Positions 12,506 through 64,000 of a stretch of DNA of 64,000 nt are shown here, one piece after another. Each line of letters opens with the position of its first letter. Within the stretch, counting starts at the first letter, position 1. The stretch is from an uncultured Actinomycetes bacterium. GTDB lineage: Bacteria; Actinomycetota; Thermoleophilia; UBA2241. Below the pieces are notes generated by a model, which worked only from the letters and a program-made list of their open reading frames with translations, had not been told where the DNA came from and ran no database searches. The stretch spans positions 485,009 through 549,008 of the forward strand of contig CAWAPD010000003.1 of the NCBI GenBank assembly GCA_963783865.1, read 5' to 3'. Made by a program: the position numbers and the translations under genes.

Positions 12506-13768
12506 GTGGACGCCGACCCCGGCCGATTAGAACTCTCCGACCTCGAATCGATGACGGTGGTCGACGCCGCCGGCCACGAGGTCGGCGAGCTGGCCGACGT
12601 CCTGGCCGCCCTCTCGCCCGCGCCGCCCGCCGTGACCGCCTTCATCGTCGAACGCGACGACGAGCAGCTGCGCGCCGACTGGGACCAGGTGCGGGCGATC
12701 GACGTCGACGACGAGCGGCTCACGCTGTCGGTCGCCGGCGACGTGCTGGCGCCGGCCTCGCTCTCCGAAGAGGAGATCGGGCTCGTCGACTCGGTGCTCG
12801 ACAAGCAGGTGCTCGACGTGGAGCGGCGCAAGTTCGTACGCGTCCAGGACGTGGCCATCGAGCCCTTCGAGGACCGTCTGATCGTGGCCGGCGTCGACAC
12901 CAGCAGCGGCGCCGTCATGCGGCGCATGGGTCTGGGGTTCCTGGGCCGCGGCCTGCGCCGCCGCCCCGGCGACTTCGTGCCCTGGGACGACGTCAACCTC
13001 ATCTCCGTACGGCTCTCGCGGGCCAACTTCGTCGAGGCGTTCACCGAGATAGCGGAGCTGCATCCGGCCGACCTGGCCGACATCGTCAGCCAGGTCGGCC
13101 CGCGGGAGCGCGCCGCCGTGCTGGCGGCCCTGAACGCGCCGCTGGCCGCCGACACCCTGCAGGAGATGGACCCCGAGCTGTGCACCGGCGCGCTGGCCGA
13201 GATGCCGGCCCACCGGGCCGCCGCCGTACTGCGCCACATCGACCCCGACGAGGCCGCCGACATGCTGGCCGAGCTGCCCGACGAGGTGGCCGAGCAGCTC
13301 CTCGACCTCCTGCCACCCGACGAGGCCGGCGCGCTGCGGGGCCTGGCCAGCCACCCGGAGCACTCGGCGGGGGCGCTGATGACGACGGATCTCGTCGCCC
13401 TGCCGGCCGCCATGACCGCCGACGCCGCCCTGGCGCGGATCAAAGCGGAGCGTCCCGAGCCGGTCGCCCTGGCCGTGATCCTGCTCCTCGACCGCGACGA
13501 GCGGCTCTGCGGCACGGTCTCGCTGGCCGAGCTCGTGCTGGCCGACCCCGGGCAGGCCCTGACCGGGATCTGCTCCGAGGACGCACCGCAGGTCGGTCCC
13601 GACGCCGACGAGCAGGAGGTCGGCCGTCTGATGACCAAGTACAACCTGCTGGCGCTCCCGGTGACCGACGCCGACGGCCGGGTGCTGGGCGTGGTGACGC
13701 TCGACGACGCGGTCGACGCGATCGTGCCCGACGAGTGGAAGCGGCGACTGCCGCGGCTCTTCCGCTAG
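12506..13768 (+). CDS. PRC-barrel + MgtE N-terminal + CBS-pair domain protein (MgtE cytosolic-domain homolog lacking the membrane pore)
   Basis: MgtE_N-like acidic helices (MLAELPDEVAEQLLDLLPPDEAGAL) followed by two CBS motifs; no TM region; GTG start after AAGGA. Confidence 0.6.
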   Translation: MDADPGRLELSDLESMTVVDAAGHEVGELADVLAALSPAPPAVTAFIVERDDEQLRADWDQVRAIDVDDERLTLSVAGDVLAPASLSEEEIGLVDSVLDKQVLDVERRKFVRVQDVAIEPFEDRLIVAGVDTSSGAVMRRMGLGFLGRGLRRRPGDFVPWDDVNLISVRLSRANFVEAFTEIAELHPADLADIVSQVGPRERAAVLAALNAPLAADTLQEMDPELCTGALAEMPAHRAAAVLRHIDPDEAADMLAELPDEVAEQLLDLLPPDEAGALRGLASHPEHSAGALMTTDLVALPAAMTADAALARIKAERPEPVALAVILLLDRDERLCGTVSLAELVLADPGQALTGICSEDAPQVGPDADEQEVGRLMTKYNLLALPVTDADGRVLGVVTLDDAVDAIVPDEWKRRLPRLFR

Positions 13769-17383: not shown

Positions 17384-17448
17384 CGACAGGCATCGGGTGA
17401 CGATGGTACAAGGTGTGCGTCCCGCGCACCGACGACCGTGAGAGCCGC

Positions 17449-19734
17449 ATGAGACTCATCGTCACCGAGAAGGATTCCGCCGCCCGCAAGATCGCCCAGA
17501 TCCTCGGCGGCCCCGTCAGCACGACCGAGCACGGCCGCGGGCGGCAGAAGGTCAGGTCGTACTCGTTCACCTGGAAGGGCGAGCCGGCCGTCGCGGTCGG
17601 CCTGCGCGGCCATGTGATGGAGACGGCGTTCCCCAACACCTACCGCCGCTGGAGCCTCAAGACCCTCGACAAGATGACCCGCGAGCCGAGCCTGGCGTGG
17701 GTGGTCGACGGCGCCAGCGCGTCCACCGTCGCGGCGCTGCGGTCGGCGGCCAAGGGCGCCACCGAGGTGATCGTGGCGACCGACTACGACCGCGAGGGTG
17801 AACTGATCGGCGAGGAGGCGCTGCGGATCCTGCGCGGCGACGCCCTGCGCCGCCACCCCGGCGACAAGCCCGAGAAGGCCGCCCGGCGCGGCAAGAGGGC
17901 GGCGGCGGGCGGGCGCCGCCCCGCGGCGCCGCCCCCGCCGCCGCTCGACGGCGACGACGGCGAGGTCAAGCTCAAGCCGGCGCTGCCCGAGGCGATCGTC
18001 GACCGCCACCACCGGGCCCGCTACTCGGCTCTCACGACCGAAGAGGTCGAGCGCGCCTTCGCCAAGCTCGGCACCCTCGACTTCAACCTCGCCGACGCCG
18101 CCCACACGCGGCAGGACATCGACCTGATCTGGGGCGCCGTGCTCACCCGCTTCATGTCGCTGGCCTCCTACCGCTACGGCGCCGACTACCTGTCGATCGG
18201 CCGCGTGCAGACCCCGACCCTGCGGCTCGTGGTCGACCGCGAGCGCGAACGGCGCGCCTTCGTCGCCGTGCCCTACTGGGAGCTCGGAGCCGACCTGCAG
18301 GCCGGCACGGGCGAGCGGTTCACCGCCGAGCACGCGCACGGCCGCTTCGCCGCCGCCGCCGAGGCCGCAGCCGCCCTGGCGGGGGCCAGTGGCGGCACGG
18401 GCGAGGTGACCGCCTACGAGACCACCTCGCGCACGCTGGCGCCGCCGGCGCCCTTCAACACCACGGCCCTCATGAGCGCCGCCTCGAGCGCCGGCGTCGC
18501 GCCGGCGCGAGCCATGAGGGCGGCCGAGTCGCTCTACCTCGACGGGCTCATCAGCTACCCGCGCACCGACAACACGGTCTACCCGCCGTCGCTCGACCTC
18601 GGAGGCGTGCTGCGCACCCTCGAGGCCTACCGCCCGGTCGCCGCCATCGCCGGCGACCTCGCGGCCCAGGGCGCGCTGAAGCCCACCCGCGGCAAGAAGC
18701 AGACGACCGACCACCCCCCGATCTACCCGGTCGGCGTGCCCCGCACGGAGTTGCGCGGCGACCAGGCACGGGTCTACGACCTCGTCGCGCGCCGCTTCCT
18801 GGCGACGCTGTCGCCGCCGGCCGTGATCGAGAGCCAGCGACTCGACGTCCGCATCGGCAGCGAGCCGTTCGTCGCCCGCGGCAGCCGTGTCGCCAAGCCG
18901 GGCTACCTGCGGGCGTGGCAGCCGTACACGTCGGACCGCGAGAAGCCGCTGCCGCAGGCCGCGCCGAGCGACCTCGTCACCGTGCTCGAGGTGCGCAACG
19001 AGGCCAAGGAGACCCAGCCGCCCGGCCGCTACGGACAGGGCGCCCTGATCGAGAAGATGGAGGAGCTCGGCCTGGGGACCAAGGCGACCCGAGCCGACAT
19101 CATCCAGCACCTCTACGACCGCCACTACGTCGACGGCAACCAGGTCGAGCCCACCGGGCTGGGCATGGCCTTGATCGACGCCTTCGACGCCGCCATGGCC
19201 GAGGCCAGGATCGACATCTCCTCGCCGGCCATGACCGCTCGTCTCGAGCAGGAGATGGACGGCATCACCGAGGGCAAGCGCCGCCGCGACGAGGTCGTCG
19301 AAGACAGCCAGGAGATGCTGCTGCACGCGCTCAAGCTGCTCGAGGAGCACCTCGAGAAGATCCGTACCGTGATCCCCCAGGCGGCTCGCGAGGACCAGGG
19401 GATCGGTCTCATCCTGGGCACCTGCCAGGTGTGCGGCGGCCAGCTCAAGGTGCTGCGCGGCCGTACCGGCAAGCGGTTCGTCGCCTGCGTGGGCAAGGAG
19501 GGCGACGAGCCACGCGTGCCCGAGGGCGCGCCCGAGGGCACGCCGGGCCGGACCGGCTGCGGGCAAACATTCCCGCTCCCCCAGCGGGGTGCTATCATCG
19601 CGAAAGGGACCACCTGCGAGACCTGCGGGTGGCCCGAGATCACCGTGACGAAAACGGGCGGCCGCGGCAGACCGTGGCAGCTCTGTCTGGACCCGGATTG
19701 TCCCACCAAGGAGAAGTACAAGAAGCGCGCGTAG
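17449..19734 (+). CDS. topA: type IA DNA topoisomerase (TOPRIM + topoisomerase core, C-terminal zinc ribbons)
   Basis: N-terminal TOPRIM (LIVTEKDSAARKIAQIL), active-site region LISYPRTDN, two C-terminal CxxC...C motifs; ATG 17449. Confidence 0.85.
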   Translation: MRLIVTEKDSAARKIAQILGGPVSTTEHGRGRQKVRSYSFTWKGEPAVAVGLRGHVMETAFPNTYRRWSLKTLDKMTREPSLAWVVDGASASTVAALRSAAKGATEVIVATDYDREGELIGEEALRILRGDALRRHPGDKPEKAARRGKRAAAGGRRPAAPPPPPLDGDDGEVKLKPALPEAIVDRHHRARYSALTTEEVERAFAKLGTLDFNLADAAHTRQDIDLIWGAVLTRFMSLASYRYGADYLSIGRVQTPTLRLVVDRERERRAFVAVPYWELGADLQAGTGERFTAEHAHGRFAAAAEAAAALAGASGGTGEVTAYETTSRTLAPPAPFNTTALMSAASSAGVAPARAMRAAESLYLDGLISYPRTDNTVYPPSLDLGGVLRTLEAYRPVAAIAGDLAAQGALKPTRGKKQTTDHPPIYPVGVPRTELRGDQARVYDLVARRFLATLSPPAVIESQRLDVRIGSEPFVARGSRVAKPGYLRAWQPYTSDREKPLPQAAPSDLVTVLEVRNEAKETQPPGRYGQGALIEKMEELGLGTKATRADIIQHLYDRHYVDGNQVEPTGLGMALIDAFDAAMAEARIDISSPAMTARLEQEMDGITEGKRRRDEVVEDSQEMLLHALKLLEEHLEKIRTVIPQAAREDQGIGLILGTCQVCGGQLKVLRGRTGKRFVACVGKEGDEPRVPEGAPEGTPGRTGCGQTFPLPQRGAIIAKGTTCETCGWPEITVTKTGGRGRPWQLCLDPDCPTKEKYKKRA

Positions 19735-33172: not shown

Positions 33173-34940
33173 GATGGCCGAGTATACACTTGGCCCGGTC
33201 ATGCAGGGGACGCTGGACACCTTCAGCGTCGTCGAGGTCCTCCAGATGCTGGGGCGGGTCCGGAGCTCGGGGACGCTCCACATCGAGTGCGCCGAGCGGC
33301 AGATCGACGTCCACTTCATCCAGGGACTTATCGCGGAGACCCGCGATTCCACCCGGGTGTACGCCGACACCGTGCTCGGCAGCCTCCTCATCAAGCGCGC
33401 CCTGGTCACCGACGACCAGCTCGCCGAGGCGCTCGCCGAGCAGGAGCACAACCCCAAGCCGATCGGCACCATCCTGGTCGAGAAGGGGTTCGTGCACGAG
33501 GCCGACCTGCGCGACGTGTTGTCGCGGCAGGTCGCCAACTCGTTCCTCGCGGTCAAGACCGCCGGAGCCGGCACGTTCATGTTCGTCATCGACGAGCAGC
33601 CGCGACCCGTCGACTACATCACGATCGACACCAACAGCGTCCTCATCGAGGTCTCGTCGGTCGGCGGCGACTACGTCGTCGCCTTCAACCTGCTCGGGCA
33701 GGCGAACACCGTGCTGCTGCTCAACCGGGACTACGAGACGCTGCCCCGCCATTCGATCCCGATGGGCCGCGACGAGTTCCATGTGCTCACGCTGATCGAC
33801 GACCGGCGCACGGTGCAGGAGATCACCGACCTGAGTCACCTCGAGGAGGTGACGGTGATCAGCATCCTCGGCAAGTTCTGCGAGGCCGGGGTGCTGCTCG
33901 CGAAGGCCGAGAAGCAGGCGCGGGCGGCCGCCGACGACGAGCTGCTCGCACACCGGGACAGCGTCTGGGCCGAGGTCACGAAGATCCTCGACGACGTGAC
34001 CGGCACGGAGACGACCCTGGCCGCGCAGCCGCCGCGCAAGCAGGTCGAGCAGCCGGCCGACGCCGGCGTCGCCCTCAAGGTGGGCGACATGATCGACGGG
34101 CTCGTCGACACCGAGGTCACGCCGGCGCTCCAGGCGCTCGAGCACGACGGCGCGGCGGCGCCGTTCGACGAGGCGACGGCTGGGCCCGGGCAGACGCCGG
34201 CCGACGAGGTCGATCCGCTGGCGGCGCTGGTCGCCGCGTTCCCCGGACCGCCACCCGACGAGGCCGAGCTCGAAGACGCCGCCGGGCCGGAGCCCGGACA
34301 GGCCGCGCCTGCGGCCGCGGCGGAGACCCCCTCTGAGACACCGCCCGCGCCCCCTGTGCCTCCGGCCGTGGACGGGACCGCCGGGTTCGACTTCTCGGGC
34401 GCGACAGCGCCTGCGCCCGAGTCTCCCGCCGCGCCCGCGCCCGAGCCTCCCGCCGCGTCCGCGCCCGAGCCTCCCGCCGCGTCCGCGCCCGAGCCTCCCG
34501 CCGCGTCCGCGCCCGAGTCTCCCGCCGCGTCCGCGCCCGAGCCTCCCGCCGCGCCCGCGCCCGAGTCTCCCGCCGCGCCCGCGCCGCCCGCGGTGGGCGT
34601 CAACGGTGAGATGCCGATGCTTGCCGAACCGGTCCACCAGAGCTGGGAGGCCATCGACGGCGATGACGGCGAGCGTGACGAGCTGACCGAAGAAGAGATC
34701 GCCGCGGGCTTCTCGCGCGACATCACGCGCCCGCCGCTCGGGACCGGCATGGACCTGCCATGGGACGACGAAGAGGAGCCGGCGGCGCCGACTGCGCCCA
34801 GGGCACGCCCAGGCGCGCCCGCCACCGGCGAAAAGCCGGCGGCTCCTGCCGGCGCCGATCCCGGGTCGCCGGCTCCCGAAGGCGCCGACAAGCCGCTGCC
34901 GCCTCTCACGCCCGACGAGCTCGACGGCAAGTGGACCTGA
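33171..34940 (+). CDS. DUF4388 + T2SSE_N (GspE/MshE N-terminal-like) domain protein with Pro/Ala-rich repetitive C-terminus
   Basis: FSVVEVLQMLGRVRSSGTLHIE (DUF4388), LGSLLIKRALVTDDQLAEALAEQEHNPKPIGTILVEKGFVHEADL (T2SSE_N-like), then low-complexity PEPPAASA repeats; start ATG 33171/33174 or 33201. Confidence 0.6.
   Translation: MMAEYTLGPVMQGTLDTFSVVEVLQMLGRVRSSGTLHIECAERQIDVHFIQGLIAETRDSTRVYADTVLGSLLIKRALVTDDQLAEALAEQEHNPKPIGTILVEKGFVHEADLRDVLSRQVANSFLAVKTAGAGTFMFVIDEQPRPVDYITIDTNSVLIEVSSVGGDYVVAFNLLGQANTVLLLNRDYETLPRHSIPMGRDEFHVLTLIDDRRTVQEITDLSHLEEVTVISILGKFCEAGVLLAKAEKQARAAADDELLAHRDSVWAEVTKILDDVTGTETTLAAQPPRKQVEQPADAGVALKVGDMIDGLVDTEVTPALQALEHDGAAAPFDEATAGPGQTPADEVDPLAALVAAFPGPPPDEAELEDAAGPEPGQAAPAAAAETPSETPPAPPVPPAVDGTAGFDFSGATAPAPESPAAPAPEPPAASAPEPPAASAPEPPAASAPESPAASAPEPPAAPAPESPAAPAPPAVGVNGEMPMLAEPVHQSWEAIDGDDGERDELTEEEIAAGFSRDITRPPLGTGMDLPWDDEEEPAAPTAPRARPGAPATGEKPAAPAGADPGSPAPEGADKPLPPLTPDELDGKWT
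34414..34581 (+). repeat. seven tandem copies of a 24-bp coding repeat (GCGCCCGAGYCTCCCGCCGCGYCC, peptide PEPPAASA/PESPAAPA)
   Basis: Read directly in sequence; in-frame within the DUF4388 protein C-terminus. Confidence 0.85.
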
Positions 34941-34960
34941 CGCCAGGGGGCGCGGAGATG

Positions 34961-35000
34961 AGAAGAGGGCGGGCGGCCCGTACGGGCCGCCCGCCCTCTT
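34961..35000. terminator. bidirectional terminator hairpin between convergent genes
   Basis: 19-bp perfect stem GAAGAGGGCGGGCGGCCCG / CGGGCCGCCCGCCCTCTTC with TAC loop. Confidence 0.6.
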
Positions 35001-35040
35001 CGTTGCTACCGGCGCCCTCGGGCGCCGCGCGCGAGGACCG

Positions 35041-36429
35041 TCAGGCGGTCACGTCGCGGACGAGGTCCTCGTAGGCTGATACGTAGAGGTCGATGTCCTC
35101 GTCGGTGTGCGTGATCGACAGCGTCCACTCCTCTTCGCGGCCGGGAGCGATGATGATGCCGCGGTTGATGTTGTACAGCCATGCGAGTCCGACGAGCTCG
35201 TGGTCCTGGTACTTGATGAAGGACTCGTAGTCGGTGACCTTGGTGCTGGCGAAGTTGACGCACCCCTTGGAGCGGATGCCGACCGTGTACGCCGGGAAGT
35301 TGTACTTCTCCGCGATGGCGTCGCACTCGGTGATCAGGCGGTCGTTGAGGTAGTCGAGGCGAGCGTAGGCGGCTGGGGTCATGACCTGCTCGAAGCTGGC
35401 CCGCGCCGCGGCCATCGACAGCGGGTTGCCGCTGTAGGTGCCGACCTGGAAGACGGTGCCCTTGTGCACGATGTCCATGATCTCGTCGCTGCCGCCGATC
35501 GCCCCGCACGGGGTGCCGCCGGCGATGGCCTTGCCGAGGGTGACCATGTCGGGCACGACGCCCCAGCGCTCGATCGCGCCGCCGGCGGCGGTGCAGATGC
35601 CGGTCTTGACCTCGTCGAAGATGAGCACGATGCCGTGCTTCTTGGTGATCTCGCGGACGGCCTCGAGGTAGCCCGGCTCGGGCAGCACGACGCCGAGGTT
35701 CATCATCGCCGGCTCCATGATCAGGCAGGCCGGCTTGCGGCCCTCGGCGATGAGCTTCTCGATGCGCGCCTCCATCATCGCCGGGTCGTTGAACGGGACC
35801 GGGATGGTCATGTCGATCGACGACTGGGGGATGCCGGCGCCGTACGACATCGACTTGTAGTTGTCGCGCGGCCCGATCTGGCCGAAGTCCGTCACGCCGA
35901 TCGAGACCATGACGTAGTCGTGATGGCCGTGGTACGAGCCGAAGATCTTCATGATCGTCTCACGGCCGGTGAAGCCGCGCGCGACGCGGATGGCGTCCAT
36001 CGTCGCCTCGGAGCCGGAGTTCACGAAACGCCACTTCGGCAGCTTGAAGGTCTCGGCGAGGTGCTCGGCCATGATGACGCCGTCCTCGGTGGGCAGGCCG
36101 AACTGCGTGCCGAGGGGAGCCCGCTTCTGGATCGCTTCGACGATGACGGGGTGGGCGTGGCCCTGGACCATGCAGCCGAAGCCGTTGTGGAAGTCGCTCA
36201 ACTCCTGGCCGTCGACCGAGTAGATCTTGGATCCCTTGCCGTGGGTGAAATAGACGGGATACGGATCGCGCGCGTGGTACGTGGAGGCGACGCCCATCGG
36301 CATCGACTTGACCGCGCGCTTGTACAGCTCATAGGACTTGGGAGTGGCCTGCTCGAGGCGCTTCTCCTCCTTGTCCGTCAGCTCCGTGATGCGCTTGCGG
36401 TCGATCTGGACGGGGGTACTCGACGTCAT
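35041..36429 (-). CDS. class-III PLP-dependent aminotransferase (glutamate-1-semialdehyde 2,1-aminomutase family)
   Basis: SGSEA, FDEVKTG (PLP-lysine region), TLGKAIAGG motifs; ATG 36429 12 nt after AAGGAG. Confidence 0.85.
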   Translation of the reverse strand: MTSSTPVQIDRKRITELTDKEEKRLEQATPKSYELYKRAVKSMPMGVASTYHARDPYPVYFTHGKGSKIYSVDGQELSDFHNGFGCMVQGHAHPVIVEAIQKRAPLGTQFGLPTEDGVIMAEHLAETFKLPKWRFVNSGSEATMDAIRVARGFTGRETIMKIFGSYHGHHDYVMVSIGVTDFGQIGPRDNYKSMSYGAGIPQSSIDMTIPVPFNDPAMMEARIEKLIAEGRKPACLIMEPAMMNLGVVLPEPGYLEAVREITKKHGIVLIFDEVKTGICTAAGGAIERWGVVPDMVTLGKAIAGGTPCGAIGGSDEIMDIVHKGTVFQVGTYSGNPLSMAAARASFEQVMTPAAYARLDYLNDRLITECDAIAEKYNFPAYTVGIRSKGCVNFASTKVTDYESFIKYQDHELVGLAWLYNINRGIIIAPGREEEWTLSITHTDEDIDLYVSAYEDLVRDVTA

Positions 36430-39358: not shown

Positions 39359-40609
39359 TCAGCCGGTCGCGTCCGGTGTCGGAGCCGCGGGGGGGTCGGC
39401 TGCTGGGGCGTCGGGGGTGGGGGCGTCGGGGACGGAGACGTCCCCGACGCCCCCACCGCGACGCCCCTCTTCGGTGGCCGGCCGCTGCAGGCCCAGGTCC
39501 CAGCCCTCGAACCTCACCCGTGGACGCAGGAAGAGGTACGTCTCACGCACCAGCGGGATCAGCGGCACGGCGATGAACATGCCCGAGATGCCGTGGATCT
39601 CCTGTCCGGCGAGGATGACGAAGATCACGACCAGCGGGTGCACCCGCAGCCGCGATCCCATGATCGTCGGCGTGAGGACGTGTCCCTCGATCTGCTGGAT
39701 CGCCAGGTACGTGAGGATCACCCACACCATCGTGAGCGGCGAGTGGAGCAGGGCGACGAACGACGGCGGCACGGCCGCCAGGAACGGCCCGACGTAGGGG
39801 ATGATCTCCATGACGGCGGTCCACGCTCCGAAGAAGGCCGCATACTTGCTGCCTGAGGGGAACACACCGGTCATGCCGAGGATCCACATCGCGAGTCCGG
39901 CGCTGAGCCCGAGCGCGGCCGACAACAGGAGCTGCGCCTTGACGTAGTCGACGACGGCCGACTGTGCGAGGCGGACGTAGCTCTCGCCGTCGCTGCGCGA
40001 CCGCGTCGGGAAGTGGTCGACGACGAAGCGCGAGATACGGCGCGAGTCGAGCAGCATGTAGATGGAGATCACGACGATCACGATCAGCAGGGCGACGGTG
40101 CGCACCACCGAGACCCCGAAGCCGAGCAGGCTGCCGGAGATGCTGGGCACGCGGTCGGCGGCCGACCGCGCGAAGCGCTGCAGCTGGGCCCCGACGTCGA
40201 CGTTCAGATGGAGCCGGTCGGCGACGTGCTGGAGTTGGTCCACGAGGCTCTTCGCCTGGCTGGTCATCGAGGGCAGCGAGGAGAGCAGGTTCTTGAGCTG
40301 GGTCACGATCGCGGGCATGAGCGCTGCCGCGAGCCCGACGATCACGGCGACGGCCACGAGATAGACGAGGAACACGCCCACGTAGCGCGGTACGTGGGCG
40401 CGCTTGAGCAGGTTCACGAGCGGGTTGAGGACGAGCGCCAGCAGCGAGGCCGCCAGGAAGATGAACACCGCCTGGCCGATGACCCCGAGGAACAGCCAGA
40501 CGATGATCAGCAGAGCCGGGATGAGCGCCGCTTGTAACCAGCGCGGCACGACGACGCGGCCCATGGGGGGAGCCTCGTGGTCCGTTGACCTGCCGTCGGC
40601 GGCTGCCAT
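39359..40609 (-). CDS. AI-2E family transporter (PerM/TqsA-like, UPF0118)
   Basis: 8-TM architecture with conserved PYVGPFLAAVP and IAVPLIPLV segments; ATG 40609 sits 7 nt downstream of a GGTATACT -10-like element (possible leaderless start); alternative ATG 40564. Confidence 0.75.
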   Translation of the reverse strand: MAAADGRSTDHEAPPMGRVVVPRWLQAALIPALLIIVWLFLGVIGQAVFIFLAASLLALVLNPLVNLLKRAHVPRYVGVFLVYLVAVAVIVGLAAALMPAIVTQLKNLLSSLPSMTSQAKSLVDQLQHVADRLHLNVDVGAQLQRFARSAADRVPSISGSLLGFGVSVVRTVALLIVIVVISIYMLLDSRRISRFVVDHFPTRSRSDGESYVRLAQSAVVDYVKAQLLLSAALGLSAGLAMWILGMTGVFPSGSKYAAFFGAWTAVMEIIPYVGPFLAAVPPSFVALLHSPLTMVWVILTYLAIQQIEGHVLTPTIMGSRLRVHPLVVIFVILAGQEIHGISGMFIAVPLIPLVRETYLFLRPRVRFEGWDLGLQRPATEEGRRGGGVGDVSVPDAPTPDAPAADPPAAPTPDATG

Positions 40610-56718: not shown

Positions 56719-56923
56719 CGCCGCGGAGCGGGCGCTCGCCGCGCGAACTTGTGCGTTCTTGGGCACCTCCGTGACACGCCCGCCCGGCGGCGATACGCTC
56801 GCCGTCGGCGGCCGCCGTGGCCGCCGTGACTCCGTTGCCGGTGCCGCCGGACCCGCGGCAGGTCCGGGGGTGTGATCCCCGCACCGGCGGGCGGTCGTGA
56901 ACGCGGATCACGTGGAGGTGTGC

Positions 56924-58324
56924 GTGGAGTCGAAGATCCGTACCCGTATGGGCGACGGCGCCCTCGTCGAGACGACCCCGTCCGAGATCAGAGCCGATCT
57001 CGAGGCAGGCACTCAGCAGGCCGCCAAGCGCTCGAAGTACCCCGAGCTCACCAGCGACGAGCTCGACCACCTGCTCGACATCTTCGCGTCGAACAGCCGG
57101 GTGACCGGCGTCGACATCGGCGACGAGGTCGTCCTCAGCTACGACGGCTGCGGCAGCCAGGACATGGGGACCCGTATCAACGACCTCCAGGTCTACGAGC
57201 AGATCCTCTGCGCCGACTCGCTCGAGATGTACAGCCACGACTACTCGTACAAGCCGTGCAAGCCCCTCGTGCCTTACGAGCAGGCGATCATGCGCCAGGC
57301 GCAGTGGCTGCTGACGGCGCCCTGCGGCTACGGGGCGATGAGCGACCTCGGGCGCTACACCGTGCCCGACGGCCCGGTCGTCAACTGGTCGCAGCTGCTG
57401 CCGCTGGGCCAGATCGACGAGGCTCGGGCGGCCCAGGAAGAGGCCGTCGAGCTCGCCGCCGACGACATGGTGTTCGTGGCCGAGGGCATGGTCGAGGCCG
57501 GCGTCGACCACATCGACTTCGACACGGCCGGAGCGGCCGGCGACGCCGACTTCCTGGCCACGCTCAAGGCGATCGAGCGGCTGCGCGCCGCCTATCCCGA
57601 CTTGGGCATCCAGATCGGCATGGCCGGCGAGTTCGTGCTCGGCATGCACGGCGAGCTCGAGTACGACGGCAGGCGCCTGGCCGGCATGTGGCCGGTGCAG
57701 CAGATGGAGGCGGCGGCCAAGGCCGGCGTCACCATCTTCGGGCCGGCCGTCAACACCAACACCGGCAAGTCGATCGCCTGGAACGTGGCCCGCGTGCTGA
57801 CCATCTGCAAGCCGGTCTGCGAGCAGTCCACCGTGCCGGTGCACGTGAACGGCGGGATGGGCGTGGGCGGCGTGCCGATGCACATCACGCCGCCCGGCGA
57901 CGCGACGACCAGAGCCTCGCGGGCCTGCGTCGACATCCTGCGCCTCGACGGGTTGTAGGTGGGCGCCGGTGACGTCTACGGCCAGGCGACGGCGCACAGT
58001 GTCGCCTCGAGCATGGGCGGTATCCGCACTGCGGGAGATCTCGTAGCCAGGATGCAGTTCACCCGGGGCATGAGGAACATCGAGGCCAAGCGGTACGTGG
58101 CCGAGAAGCTGGGCGTGTCGGCGCTCGACCTGGTCGACCCGGTCGTGATGCTCGACGTGCGCAAGGAGTTCGGCCTGGGGTCGATGTACGAGTCCGAGAT
58201 CTCGGGACCCGACGACCCGCTCGCCATCGAGGCCAAGTTCAACATCTCGAAGGTGCTCGACGTCCCCATCAACTGCGTCGAGCGTTTCAAGGAGAAGAGC
58301 GGCCGGGCGGCGGCCCGGGCGTAG
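56924..58324 (+). CDS. mtbB: dimethylamine:corrinoid methyltransferase MtbB homolog (Dimeth_Pyl family), copy 1, with in-frame TAG (putative pyrrolysine codon) at 57956-57958
   Basis: Conserved MtbB blocks on both sides of the TAG: TRMGDG, YGAMSDLGRYTVPDGP, DFDTAGAAGD, GMAGEFVLGMHGELEYDG, FGPAVNTNTGKSIAWNVARV, GMGVGGVPM, then DGL-TAG-VGAGD...[19 protein letters not shown]...EAKRYVAEKLGV; the ORF track splits it into 56897..57958 and 57959..58324; GGAGG RBS before GTG 56924. Confidence 0.75.
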
Positions 58325-60659: not shown

Positions 60660-62046
60660 TTGGAACCGAAGATCCCTACCCGCATGGGTGACGGGTCGCT
60701 CGTCGAGATGACCCGGTCCGAGATCGAGGCCGATCTCCTGGAGGGCACCCGGCAGGCGGCGAAGCGGGCCAAGTGCGACCCGCTCACGCAGGACGAGCTC
60801 GATCACCTTCTCGACATCTACGCCTCGGCGGCGCGCTTCACGGCGGTCGACATCGGCGACGAGGTCGTGATGAGCAACGACGGCACTGGGACCAAGCACA
60901 TCGGCAACCGGGTGCAGGACCTGCAGACCTACGAGCAGGCGCTCGGCGTCGACATGGTCGAGCTGTGGCAGATCGACTACTCCTACAAGGCGATCAAGCC
61001 CAACATCGCGCACGAGAAGCAGTCGATGAAGATCGCCCAGGCGCTGCTCACCAACCCGGTGCAGTACGGGGCGATGCCCGACCTCGGGCGCTACTCCAAG
61101 CCCGACGGGCCGATCGACAACTGGTCGGAGCTGCTGCCGCTGATGAAGATCGACGAGGCCCGCGTCGCCCAGGTCGAGGCGGCGAAGATGCTCGTCGAAG
61201 ACATCGACTTCGTCGCCGGGCACATGGTCGAGGCGGGCACCGACGGCATCGACTTCGACACGACGGGGGCGGCCGGCGACGCCGACTTCTTCGCCGGGCT
61301 CACCGCCTGCCGACGGCTGCGCGAGAAGTACCCGTGGCTGGGCATCGAGATCGGCATGGCGAGCGAGTTCGTGCTCGGCATGCACGGCGAGCTCGAGTTC
61401 GACGGCGAGCGGCTGGCCGGCATGTGGCCCAAGGACCAGGTGCGGATGGTCCAGCAGGCCGGGGCCTCGATCTACGGGCCGGCCGTCAACATCAACACCG
61501 GCAAGTCGACCGCCTGGAACATCGCCCGGGCGATCACCTTCATCAAGCCCGCGATGGCGGTCGCCGAGATCCCCGTGCACGTGAACGTCGGCATGGGCGT
61601 CGGCGGCGTGCCGACGTGCGTCTACCCGCCGGCCGACGCGACCTCGCGGGCCAGCAAGGCCTTCGTCGAGATCCTGAAGATCGACGGCTACTAGGTGGGG
61701 ACGGGCGACCCCCTCGGCATGGAGTCGGCGCACACGCAGGCTTCGGGCATGGGCGGAATGCGGACCGCGGGAGATCTCGTGGCTCGCATGCAGATGACCC
61801 GGAGGATGCGCCTCAAGGAGGCCAAGCAGTACGTGGCCGGCAAGCTGGGCTGCGGCGTGCGCGACCTGTCCGACCCGACGGCGATGGAGCAGATCAGGCT
61901 CGAGAAGGGCCTCGGCACGCTGCCGTTCACCTCGTCGGTGCACCCAGGCCGAGGCCGGCATGATGGAGGCCAAGTTCAACATCGCCAAGATGCTCGGCGT
62001 CGAGATCAACTGCGTCGAGCGCTTCAAGGAGCGCGCCGGGCTGTAG
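60660..62046 (+). pseudogene. mtbB: MtbB homolog copy 2: in-frame TAG at 61692-61694 at the same alignment position as copy 1, plus an apparent +1 frameshift near 61945-61960 (possible pseudogene or sequencing error)
   Basis: [39 protein letters not shown] conserved around TAG; C-terminal MMEAKFNIAKMLGVEINCVERFKERAGL is recovered only in the +1 frame from about 61960; the in-frame reading continues spuriously to 62804. Confidence 0.55.
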
Positions 62047-62074
62047 GGGCGGCTCGCTCTCGCGCGGAATACCC

Positions 62075-62118
62075 GGGCGGGGGCGGGGCGCGGCGGGAGC
62101 CGCGCCCCGCCCCCGCCC
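62075..62118. terminator. bidirectional GC hairpin between mtbB copy 2 and convergent secreted-protein gene
   Basis: 20-bp perfect stem GGGCGGGGGCGGGGCGCGGC / GCCGCGCCCCGCCCCCGCCC with GGGA loop. Confidence 0.6.
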
Positions 62119-62120
62119 TT

Positions 62121-62741
62121 CTACTTGAGCCGCGCGAGGAACGTCACGCTCCCGAACGGGTCGCCCGGGGCCGGCGCGAGACCGAACACGCCGTCGATCG
62201 CGCCCACCGAGGTCGCGTTGAAGAACAGAAGGACGTTCGTGACCTTCACGTACTTGCGGCCGTGGATGGTCACCACCGACGGTATCGAGCCCATGAGGTT
62301 CTCGTCGAAGAAGTTCGCCGAGCGGGTGCCGTTGACGGAGATCGAGAAGCCGGTACCGGTGTTCACGCCCGCGCGCCAGCCTTTCAGGTCGAGCAGGAGG
62401 AAGGTGCTCGTGCCTGGACTCACGTAGGCAAGCCCGCCTCTGAGCAGGAAGGTGCCGTGCGCCCCGGCGCCCGGGGTCCAGGTGCCACCGCGGATCGGCA
62501 TCGTGAACGTCGCGTCGGATGTCGTGAACGACATCCTCGCGGGGGGGATCGGGTACGGGGGGAGGCTGGAGCCGATGAAATCACCGGTCTCCGTGGGGTC
62601 GAGGGTGAAGGTCGCCGTCCCGGCTCCCAGCGTGTGGACGGCCGCGCCGGCCGCGGCCGGCGCGAGCAGGAGCAGCAGGCAGGCTGTGAGGGTCAGGGCG
62701 AGAGCTGTCGGCACGCGCCGGCGCTGGCGAACGGTGCTCAT
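62121..62741 (-). CDS. secreted hypothetical protein with signal peptide (possible lipoprotein)
   Basis: N-terminus MSTVRQRRRVPTALALTLTACLLLLLAPAAAGAA then Thr/Gly-rich beta-type sequence; no known domain. Confidence 0.5.
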   Translation of the reverse strand: MSTVRQRRRVPTALALTLTACLLLLLAPAAAGAAVHTLGAGTATFTLDPTETGDFIGSSLPPYPIPPARMSFTTSDATFTMPIRGGTWTPGAGAHGTFLLRGGLAYVSPGTSTFLLLDLKGWRAGVNTGTGFSISVNGTRSANFFDENLMGSIPSVVTIHGRKYVKVTNVLLFFNATSVGAIDGVFGLAPAPGDPFGSVTFLARLK

Positions 62742-62987
62742 GAGTGGACCTCCCTCATTTCCGCGAACGGTCGTGTCGTCGAAGTCTTCCCGGGGTGGCG
62801 CTGAGCAGTCGCGATGGCCCGTGGCGGGCCGGCATGCAAGCCACGCCTTGCCGCCACGGAAGCGGCTGGGGTACGATGCACCCTACCTGTCGAACGTTCA
62901 GAGTCGCTTCGCTGCCACGCACGGGGGCTTCCTGGGAGGGGGCCGCTCCGCGGAGCCGGAGGCCGTGAAGCCGCGGAGGTGAAGCTG

Positions 62988-64000
62988 GTGGAAGCGCAGG
63001 TACCGGCCCCGTCCGAGGGCCGCATCCCCACGCGCATGGGCGACGGTTCGCTGACCTTCATGACCCCGGCCGAGCTGCGCGCCGACATCGAGGACGGCAT
63101 GCAGGCGGCGGTGGCCAAGGGCAAGGTGCCGCCGCTGATCGACGCCGAGATCGACCACCTGCACGAGATCTTCACCTCGCGGGCGCGGTTCACGGCGGTC
63201 GATCTCGGCGACGAGGTCATCCTCAGCAAGGACGGCTCGGGCACGCCGCAGCTGGGCAGCCGCGTCGACGCGCTGTACGGCTGCGAGCAGGTGCTGGGGC
63301 ACGACACCTGCGAGCTGTTCCACATCGACTACTCCTACAAGGCCGTCAAGACGATCGTGCCGTTCGAGCAGCAGATCATGAAGGAGGCGCTCGAGCGCCT
63401 GACGATCCCGGTCCACTACGGCGCCCAGCCCGACCTGGGCCGTTACTCGGCGCCCGACGGACCCTGCGGCAACTGGTCCGAGCTGCTGCCCCAGGTCCGC
63501 ATCGACGAGGCCCGGGCCGCGCAGGAAGAGGCGGTCGAGCTCGCCGTCGAGGACATGGTCTACGTGGCCGAGAGCATGTGGGAGGCCGGCGCCGACGGCA
63601 TCAACTTCGACACCGCCGGCGCCGCCGGCGACGGCGACTTCCTGGCCACCCTGCTGGCGGTCGAGAAGCTGCGCGCGCGCAATCCCGAGATGGGCATCAT
63701 GGTCGGCATGGCCGGCGAGCTGCTGCTCGGCACGCACGGCCGGCTCGAGTACAAGGGCACGCGCCTCGCCGGCCTCAAGCCCGAGGGCCAGCTCAAGGTC
63801 GTCCAGGAGGCCGGGGCCACCGTGTTCGGCCCGGCCGTCAACACGAACACCAGCCGGTCGACCGCCTGGAACACGGCCCGCGCGGTCACCTACGTCAAGC
63901 CGTGCATGGACGCGGCCAGGATCCCCGTGCACATGAACGTGGGGATGGGCGTGGGCGGCGTGCCGATGTACGGCTTCTGCCCCGTCGACGCGGTGACGAG
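62988..64000 (+). CDS. mtbB: MtbB homolog copy 3, 3'-truncated by window end (the expected TAG position lies beyond 64000)
   Basis: Same conserved blocks (TRMGDGSL, YGAQPDLGRYSAPDGP, NFDTAGAAGDGD, GMAGELLLGTHGRLEYKG, FGPAVNTNTSRSTAWNTARAV, GMGVGGVPM); GGAGGTG RBS as in copies 1 and 2. Confidence 0.7.
   Translation, partial: MEAQVPAPSEGRIPTRMGDGSLTFMTPAELRADIEDGMQAAVAKGKVPPLIDAEIDHLHEIFTSRARFTAVDLGDEVILSKDGSGTPQLGSRVDALYGCEQVLGHDTCELFHIDYSYKAVKTIVPFEQQIMKEALERLTIPVHYGAQPDLGRYSAPDGPCGNWSELLPQVRIDEARAAQEEAVELAVEDMVYVAESMWEAGADGINFDTAGAAGDGDFLATLLAVEKLRARNPEMGIMVGMAGELLLGTHGRLEYKGTRLAGLKPEGQLKVVQEAGATVFGPAVNTNTSRSTAWNTARAVTYVKPCMDAARIPVHMNVGMGVGGVPMYGFCPVDAVT

Follow-up and report, generated by a model that had tools for sequence, protein, structure and literature searches.

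Near the 3' end of the 64,000-nt stretch of DNA analysed here (the window; 70% G+C), the second of three mtbB paralogs carries one extra C in the GGCC at 61947–61950, so that its reading frame is broken close to the C-terminus. Judged from its sequence, this gene (copy 2, 60660–62046, + strand) is a PF09505 dimethylamine methyltransferase gene (mtbB), and it appears to be a normal, selected, pyrrolysine (Pyl)-containing gene for a predicted dimethylamine:corrinoid methyltransferase. The extra C is probably spurious and most likely arose as an error in the consensus of a metagenome assembled from long reads (nanopore-type). We infer that the real DNA lacks the base, a reading favoured over a real mutation by indirect evidence.

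The last 7 kb of the window hold the three PF09505 (mtbB) paralogs, which are 58–63% identical. Copy 1 (63% amino acid identity to copy 2) has its C-terminus in one frame, and copy 3 (58% amino acid identity to copy 2) runs off the end of the window:

56897–58324, + strand: mtbB copy 1, intact, with a TAG at 57956–57958; PF09505 positions 3–353 and 355–462
57956–58055: PYLIS_2 match on copy 1, at its TAG; 54.7 bits (gathering score 36)
62988–64000, + strand: mtbB copy 3, ending at the window edge before its TAG; PF09505 positions 4–338

Copy 2 and its 3' flank consist of the following parts:

60660–61691, + strand: copy 2 before its TAG, 344 codons from the TTG at 60660
61692–61694, + strand: in-frame TAG of copy 2, the predicted pyrrolysine codon, in the gap between Pfam positions 352 and 355
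61692–61791, + strand: match to Rfam RF02509 (PYLIS_2); 61.2 bits (gathering score 36), E = 2.8e-12
61695–61949, + strand: copy 2 after the TAG in the original frame, VGTGD...GLGTLPFTSSVHPG (...TSSVHPG), colinear with the orthologs
61947–61950, + strand: GGCC with one surplus C (61949 or 61950), the only frame-changing coding indel across 58.6–62.1 kb relative to loci L140–L142
61951–62046, + strand: the conserved C-terminal 31 codons and TAG stop, now in the +1 frame, EAGMMEAKFNIAKMLGVEINCVERFKERAGL-stop
61950–62804, + strand: frame-0 continuation past the extra base, non-coding, crossing the terminator hairpin and overlapping the gene at 62121–62741 in antisense
62075–62118, + strand: perfect 20-bp G+C hairpin followed by TTCTACTT, terminator-like

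The part of copy 2 before the TAG matches PF09505 (Dimeth_Pyl) over positions 4–352 of 463 (E = 5.5e-123); other in-frame starts are available at ATG 60654 and GTG 60645, and the 346-aa form of this part is identical to protein P0124. Copies 1 and 2 each have a single in-frame UAG at about profile position 354 that is kept in the orthologs, and the TAG of copy 2 stands at the same place in 96 of the 101 intact orthologs, the other five being alignment-end offsets. Because the codon occupies the conserved gap of the profile and is followed by a PYLIS_2 match, the TAG of copy 2 is best read as the family's conserved pyrrolysine codon and as no defect. The preliminary description of this DNA had placed the frameshift "on top of the amber codon", as a further fault of the gene, and this part of it falls away, since the same codon is found in the orthologs and in copy 1 and coincides with the PYLIS_2 match. 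The PYLIS_2 matches on copies 1 and 2 may reflect largely coding conservation; as an observation in its own right, the model, which was built for mtbB, scores 55–61 bits on these bacterial (Actinomycetota) mtbB genes.

Downstream of the TAG the family C-terminus is divided between two frames. Frame 0 matches PF09505 positions 355–430 (E = 2.1e-29), and the +1-frame tail EAGMMEAKFNIAKMLGVEINCVERFKERAGL-stop matches positions 439–462 (E = 7e-5); with only 32 aa the tail alone scores below the gathering score, yet 28–30 of its 31 residues are identical to those of the closest orthologs. By codon usage, the coding signal of frame 0 stops at 61943 and that of the +1 frame starts at 61942. At the lesion the window reads CACCCAGGCCGAGGCC / GTGCACCCAGGCCGAGGCCGGCATG, of which the GGCC version is CCAGGCCGAGG, whereas L140, L141 and L142 read CACCCGGGCGAGGCC / CACCCGGG-CGAGGCC / GTGCACCCGGGCGAGGCCGGCATG (VHPGEAGM). 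In codons, the relatives have CCG GGC GAG and the window CCA GGC C GAG, with a synonymous G-to-A change at 61946 (CCG to CCA) 3 nt upstream of the extra base. Across the lesion the peptide would be VHPG|EAGMMEAK with the +1 shift and VHPGRGRHDGGQVQ in frame 0, and exactly one extra base parts the two frames that jointly give the whole family C-terminus. As far as the letters themselves tell, the lesion is one extra C in the GGCC at 61947–61950, at 93% of the gene length. The +1-frame stop is followed after 29 nt by the terminator-like hairpin (MFE −68.7 kcal/mol, z = −4.6), which probably marks the natural end of the gene. These results bear out what had been described beforehand as a +1 frameshift after the TAG, a conserved reading from the TAG to ...SSVHPG (to 61949) and a frame-0 ORF that stays open to 62804. 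The C-terminus does lie in the +1 frame, as described; it does not begin at 61960, since the homologous reading is taken up at 61951 with GAG (E). The suggestion of a single-base error in the CCAGGCCGAGGCCGGC run holds as to the single base, one extra C in GGCC; between an error and a young real mutation, the evidence favours an error indirectly.

For the comparison with relatives, the loci fetched comprised 59 from bacterial genomes (one genome per species) and 80 from contigs of metagenomes. Nearly all derive from Thermoleophilia/Actinomycetota MAGs (peat, soil, sediment), with copy 2 orthologs at 81–91% amino acid identity. Among the 104 orthologs used for reading the tail (≥78% amino acid identity, enough 3' sequence), the 116-residue part after the TAG is in one frame in 101, and the remaining three are broken at other positions; the tail follows the pattern ...TSSV[H/R]P[G/D/A]E[A/P]GM[M/I]EAKFNI.... 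Since the same 116-residue C-terminus is in one frame in 101/104 orthologs, the split between frame 0 and +1 in copy 2 is not a chance pattern. A protein search identified P0001 as a 99%-identical relative of copy 2, in a cluster that includes P0124. Members of this cluster, with DNA from three different JGI metagenomes, provided the three closest relatives, all of which are without the extra base: L140 (97.9% nucleotide identity, from JGI 3300082317), L141 (~95%) and L142 (~93%). A fourth contig, carrying P0122, has a 108-aa gene call after the TAG, which implies an intact tail. An exact DNA pattern across the lesion with a variable gap gave 0 matches in metagenome contigs, which indicates that this collection holds no sequence of the same strain. 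Exact look-ups of the copy 2 protein with three alternative starts matched no record, and a search of the PDB by sequence returned no relative.

These orthologs also bear on whether the two frames could be joined during translation. Programmed +1 frameshifting at CCA GGC CGA, with the rare CGA in the A site, would restore the conserved tail, and one mRNA would then need two recoding events, the reading of UAG as Pyl and the +1 shift. Rare "hungry" codons can promote +1 shifts, and both codons concerned are rare in the window (CGA makes up 2.5% of Arg codons and CCA 2.4% of Pro codons); the +1 tail is, moreover, intact. However, the tail is in frame 0 in all 101 intact orthologs, the three closest relatives among them, none of the P-site codons could re-pair at +1 (CCA to CAG, GGC to GCC, CGA to GAG), and the site has neither an upstream Shine-Dalgarno-like stimulator nor an in-frame stop. 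In bacterial prfB, a programmed +1 frameshift occurs at CUU UGA C with an upstream Shine-Dalgarno-like element. Copy 2 resembles this case in that its conserved C-terminus would be regained by shifting to +1 and that the putative shift site is followed by a rare codon; unlike prfB, it lacks a conserved site, a slippery P-site codon, a stop or a stimulator, and its orthologs are single-frame. We regard programmed frameshifting as highly improbable.

A second possibility, raised in the preliminary description, was that copy 2 is a decaying paralog: an old pseudogene gathering lesions, the amber codon among them. This idea draws on the two apparent interruptions (TAG and frameshift) in one gene of a three-paralog cluster, of which the TAG is the conserved Pyl codon found also in copy 1 and in the orthologs. 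The dN/dS of copy 2 is 0.06 against L140, 0.13 against L141 and 0.12 against L142, its nearest relative is 99% identical in amino acids, and comparison with L140–L142 revealed no second lesion. The 31 out-of-frame codons differ from those of L140–L142 by 1–3 amino acids, at positions that are variable among the orthologs, and their stop is at the conserved place. Among the paralogs, copy 2 also has the best-conserved orthologs (84–99% amino acid identity), and they are the closest and most numerous. Given the low dN/dS, the single lesion, the intact tail and stop and the well-conserved orthologs, decay of copy 2 is unsupported, and we attach hardly any probability to it. If the insertion is real at all, it must be extremely young.

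Evidence that it is not real comes from the sequencing background of the relatives. In a census of the loci fetched, frame breaks affected 14 of the 62 complete mtbB genes from nanopore "MFD" MAGs, compared with 2 of 104 in other assemblies. The MFD loci listed for this census were L016, L018, L034, L036, L037, L039, L040, L043, L044, L046, L051, L054, L055 and L057; two further MFD genes, those of L034 and L044, were matched in part only. A simple 1-nt indel explains neither of the two broken non-MFD genes (in L082 ~117 nt are deleted, and L035 has overlapping segments, which suggests a duplication or a chimeric join), giving 0/104 simple 1-nt frameshifts in non-nanopore mtbB genes. When the broken MFD genes are set against their nearest intact relatives, nearly all lesions turn out to be insertions of a single G or C outside homopolymers, in some cases accompanied by a substitution a few bases off (for example GGTA-CGGGC to GGTACCGGGC and GCATC-GCCGG to GCCTCGGCCGG), and they amount to about one frame shift per 4 kb of mtbB. 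The lesion of the window, CCCGGG-CGAGG to CCCAGGCCGAGG, has the same signature. A methylation motif (CCCGGG or CCWGG) behind nanopore miscalls was also considered. The record of P0124 (NCBI and ENA, 634,317-nt contig) has the labelling and contig scale of the MFD MAG proteins P0110 and P0113, whose contigs, of 777,446 nt and 317,706 nt, agree in length with L022 and L041, and we infer that the window's own sequence comes from a nanopore-type assembly.

Against an assembly artefact stands the condition of the rest of the window, which was checked over ~55 genes by codon-usage log-odds segmentation and Pfam scans (a GC3 frame plot was too noisy). No other split gene was found among these genes by segmentation and Pfam coverage. 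The segmentation flagged only three other ORFs in which the coding signal ends well before the stop, and by Pfam none of them is split: 17407–19731 is a topoisomerase I with a low-scoring tail, 39362–40531 a full AI-2E transporter, and 33192–34937 (+ strand) an N-terminal DUF4388 protein with a 654-nt low-scoring tail. In the last of these, coding-like codon usage stops near 34283, and from ~34230 to 35100 there is no clear coding frame on either strand. The ORF at 12539–13765 was considered as a second truncated gene and set aside; it combines MgtE_N and CBS without a membrane domain, which we take to be an architecture in its own right. Complete domain coverage elsewhere and the lack of a second split gene indicate a low local error rate in the window. 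This rate is far below that of the MFD mtbB genes, which makes a real mutation a serious competitor.

In that case the extra C would be a very recent, strain-specific 1-nt insertion that replaces the last 31 residues of the copy 2 MtbB. The rest of the window looks accurately assembled, with ~55 genes free of other frameshifts; the three paralogs (58–63% identical) provide redundancy and, with the lesion as near the 3' end as 93% of the gene, would ease tolerance of a real frameshift. The CCG-to-CCA change 3 nt away would occur by chance in ~1/7 of cases at 2% divergence, and frame 0 has no stop before the terminator. On the other hand, no relative has the base, not even one at 97.9% nucleotide identity, and without a second lesion or relaxed selection the event would have to be extremely young. 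The 0/104 count for simple 1-nt frameshifts outside nanopore data speaks against it as well, a G+C insertion outside a homopolymer is the artefact signature of the related nanopore MAGs, and the tail that would be lost (EAKFNI...INCVERF) is among the most conserved parts of the family. We consider a real insertion possible, if on the unlikely side, and an assembly error the probable explanation. These probabilities are our own back-of-envelope estimate, combined roughly from an over-dispersed artefact rate conditioned on no other errors in 62 kb, a rate of real 1-nt frameshifts of ~0.5% per gene (from the 0/104 count), a factor of ~3 for the insertion signature and a ~75% probability of a nanopore MAG source. 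With the extra C taken as an error, the real copy 2 would be read from 60660 to 61691, through the TAG as Pyl, and from 61695 to 62046 as one frame, and the organism would make a full-length MtbB ending ...VHPGEAGMMEAKFNIAKMLGVEINCVERFKERAGL.

Several other features of the window were recorded. Pfam scans and a tRNA search of the 64 kb detected no pylT, pylS, pylB, pylC or pylD gene, and the Pfam scans detected no gene for a corrinoid protein; the only tRNAs are tRNA-Leu, tRNA-Lys and tRNA-Thr. Of ~53 genes with called stops, 21 end in TAG (~40%), 31 in TGA and 1 in TAA, and the terminal stops of mtbB copies 1 and 2 are TAG, as is their internal Pyl codon. With TAG so common as a terminal stop, Pyl insertion must contend with termination at TAG on a wide scale. 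A convergent ORF of 206 aa without a Pfam match (62121–62741, − strand), whose N-terminal segment is hydrophobic and signal-like, separates copies 2 and 3. It is found at the same place in L008–L011 and L076 (65–74% amino acid identity) and is absent from the 93%-identical L142, where copy 3 directly follows copy 2. Relative to L142 there is one extra G at 62987, between the GGAGG at 62975–62979 and the GTG start of copy 3 at 62988, in the leader, where it leaves the frame unaffected. Elsewhere in the window, in what is an actinobacterial genome, 36897–38852 (− strand) encodes a 652-aa multihaem c-type cytochrome with matches to Cytochrome_C7, Paired_CXXCH_1 and an MtrC/MtrF-like domain.

Methanosarcina is the classical case of Pyl-type mtbB: its genes contain read-through amber codons and exist as multiple paralogs. 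Like Methanosarcina MtbB, the genes of the window show a full-length PF09505 match, a single TAG at the conserved position, a PYLIS_2 match after the TAG and several paralogs per genome; unlike it, they belong to a bacterial host (Thermoleophilia-like Actinomycetota) of high G+C, there is no pyl or corrinoid protein gene within the window, and copy 2 has its extra 3' base. For Methanosarcina barkeri, mtbB1-3 are described as having in-frame read-through amber codons (Paul, Ferguson and Krzycki 2000, in the form in which that work is cited in PMC10805028). Nearer to the window, Pyl-encoding mtbB/mttB genes have been reported, with expression, in Actinobacteriota MAGs from peatland (Bog-752 and others; Stordalen Mire) (PMC10805028). 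Copy 2 shares lineage and gene with these: L010 (isolate bog_752) and palsa and fen MAGs are 84–89% identical to it. Their C-terminus is uninterrupted, whereas that of copy 2 is shifted. The lesion itself is like the errors of nanopore-only MAGs: a single G or C inserted away from any homopolymer, close to a substitution, in a gene that is otherwise conserved. The nanopore MFD lesions, however, are scattered over mtbB at ~1 shift per 4 kb, compared with one lesion in the 64 kb of the window.

For annotation, copy 2 should be entered as one Pyl-containing gene at 60660–62046 with a suspected sequence error at 61949/61950, and not as three fragments or with a 369-aa ORF running to 62804. The same care applies to the clade at large: nanopore-only MAGs carry single-base insertions in about one fifth of their mtbB genes, and apparent pseudogenes among them need a check against the reads. 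The MFD lesions are an artefact at the level of the dataset and would inflate pseudogene counts.

If the base were real, frame 0 would be stopless before the hairpin, and translation would carry on until the transcript ends, with a product that lacks the conserved C-terminal segment EAKFNI...INCVERF. Trans-translation would probably tag such a product for degradation. Copy 2 would then be effectively null, a pseudogene of very recent birth, and copies 1 and 3 would buffer its loss. The biological weight of the lesion is small. The gene is of a known kind in a known lineage, an actinobacterial one in which mtbB of the Pyl type has already been described and is expressed (PMC10805028), and the frameshift, a one-off found in none of the relatives, amounts to an ordinary single-base indel.
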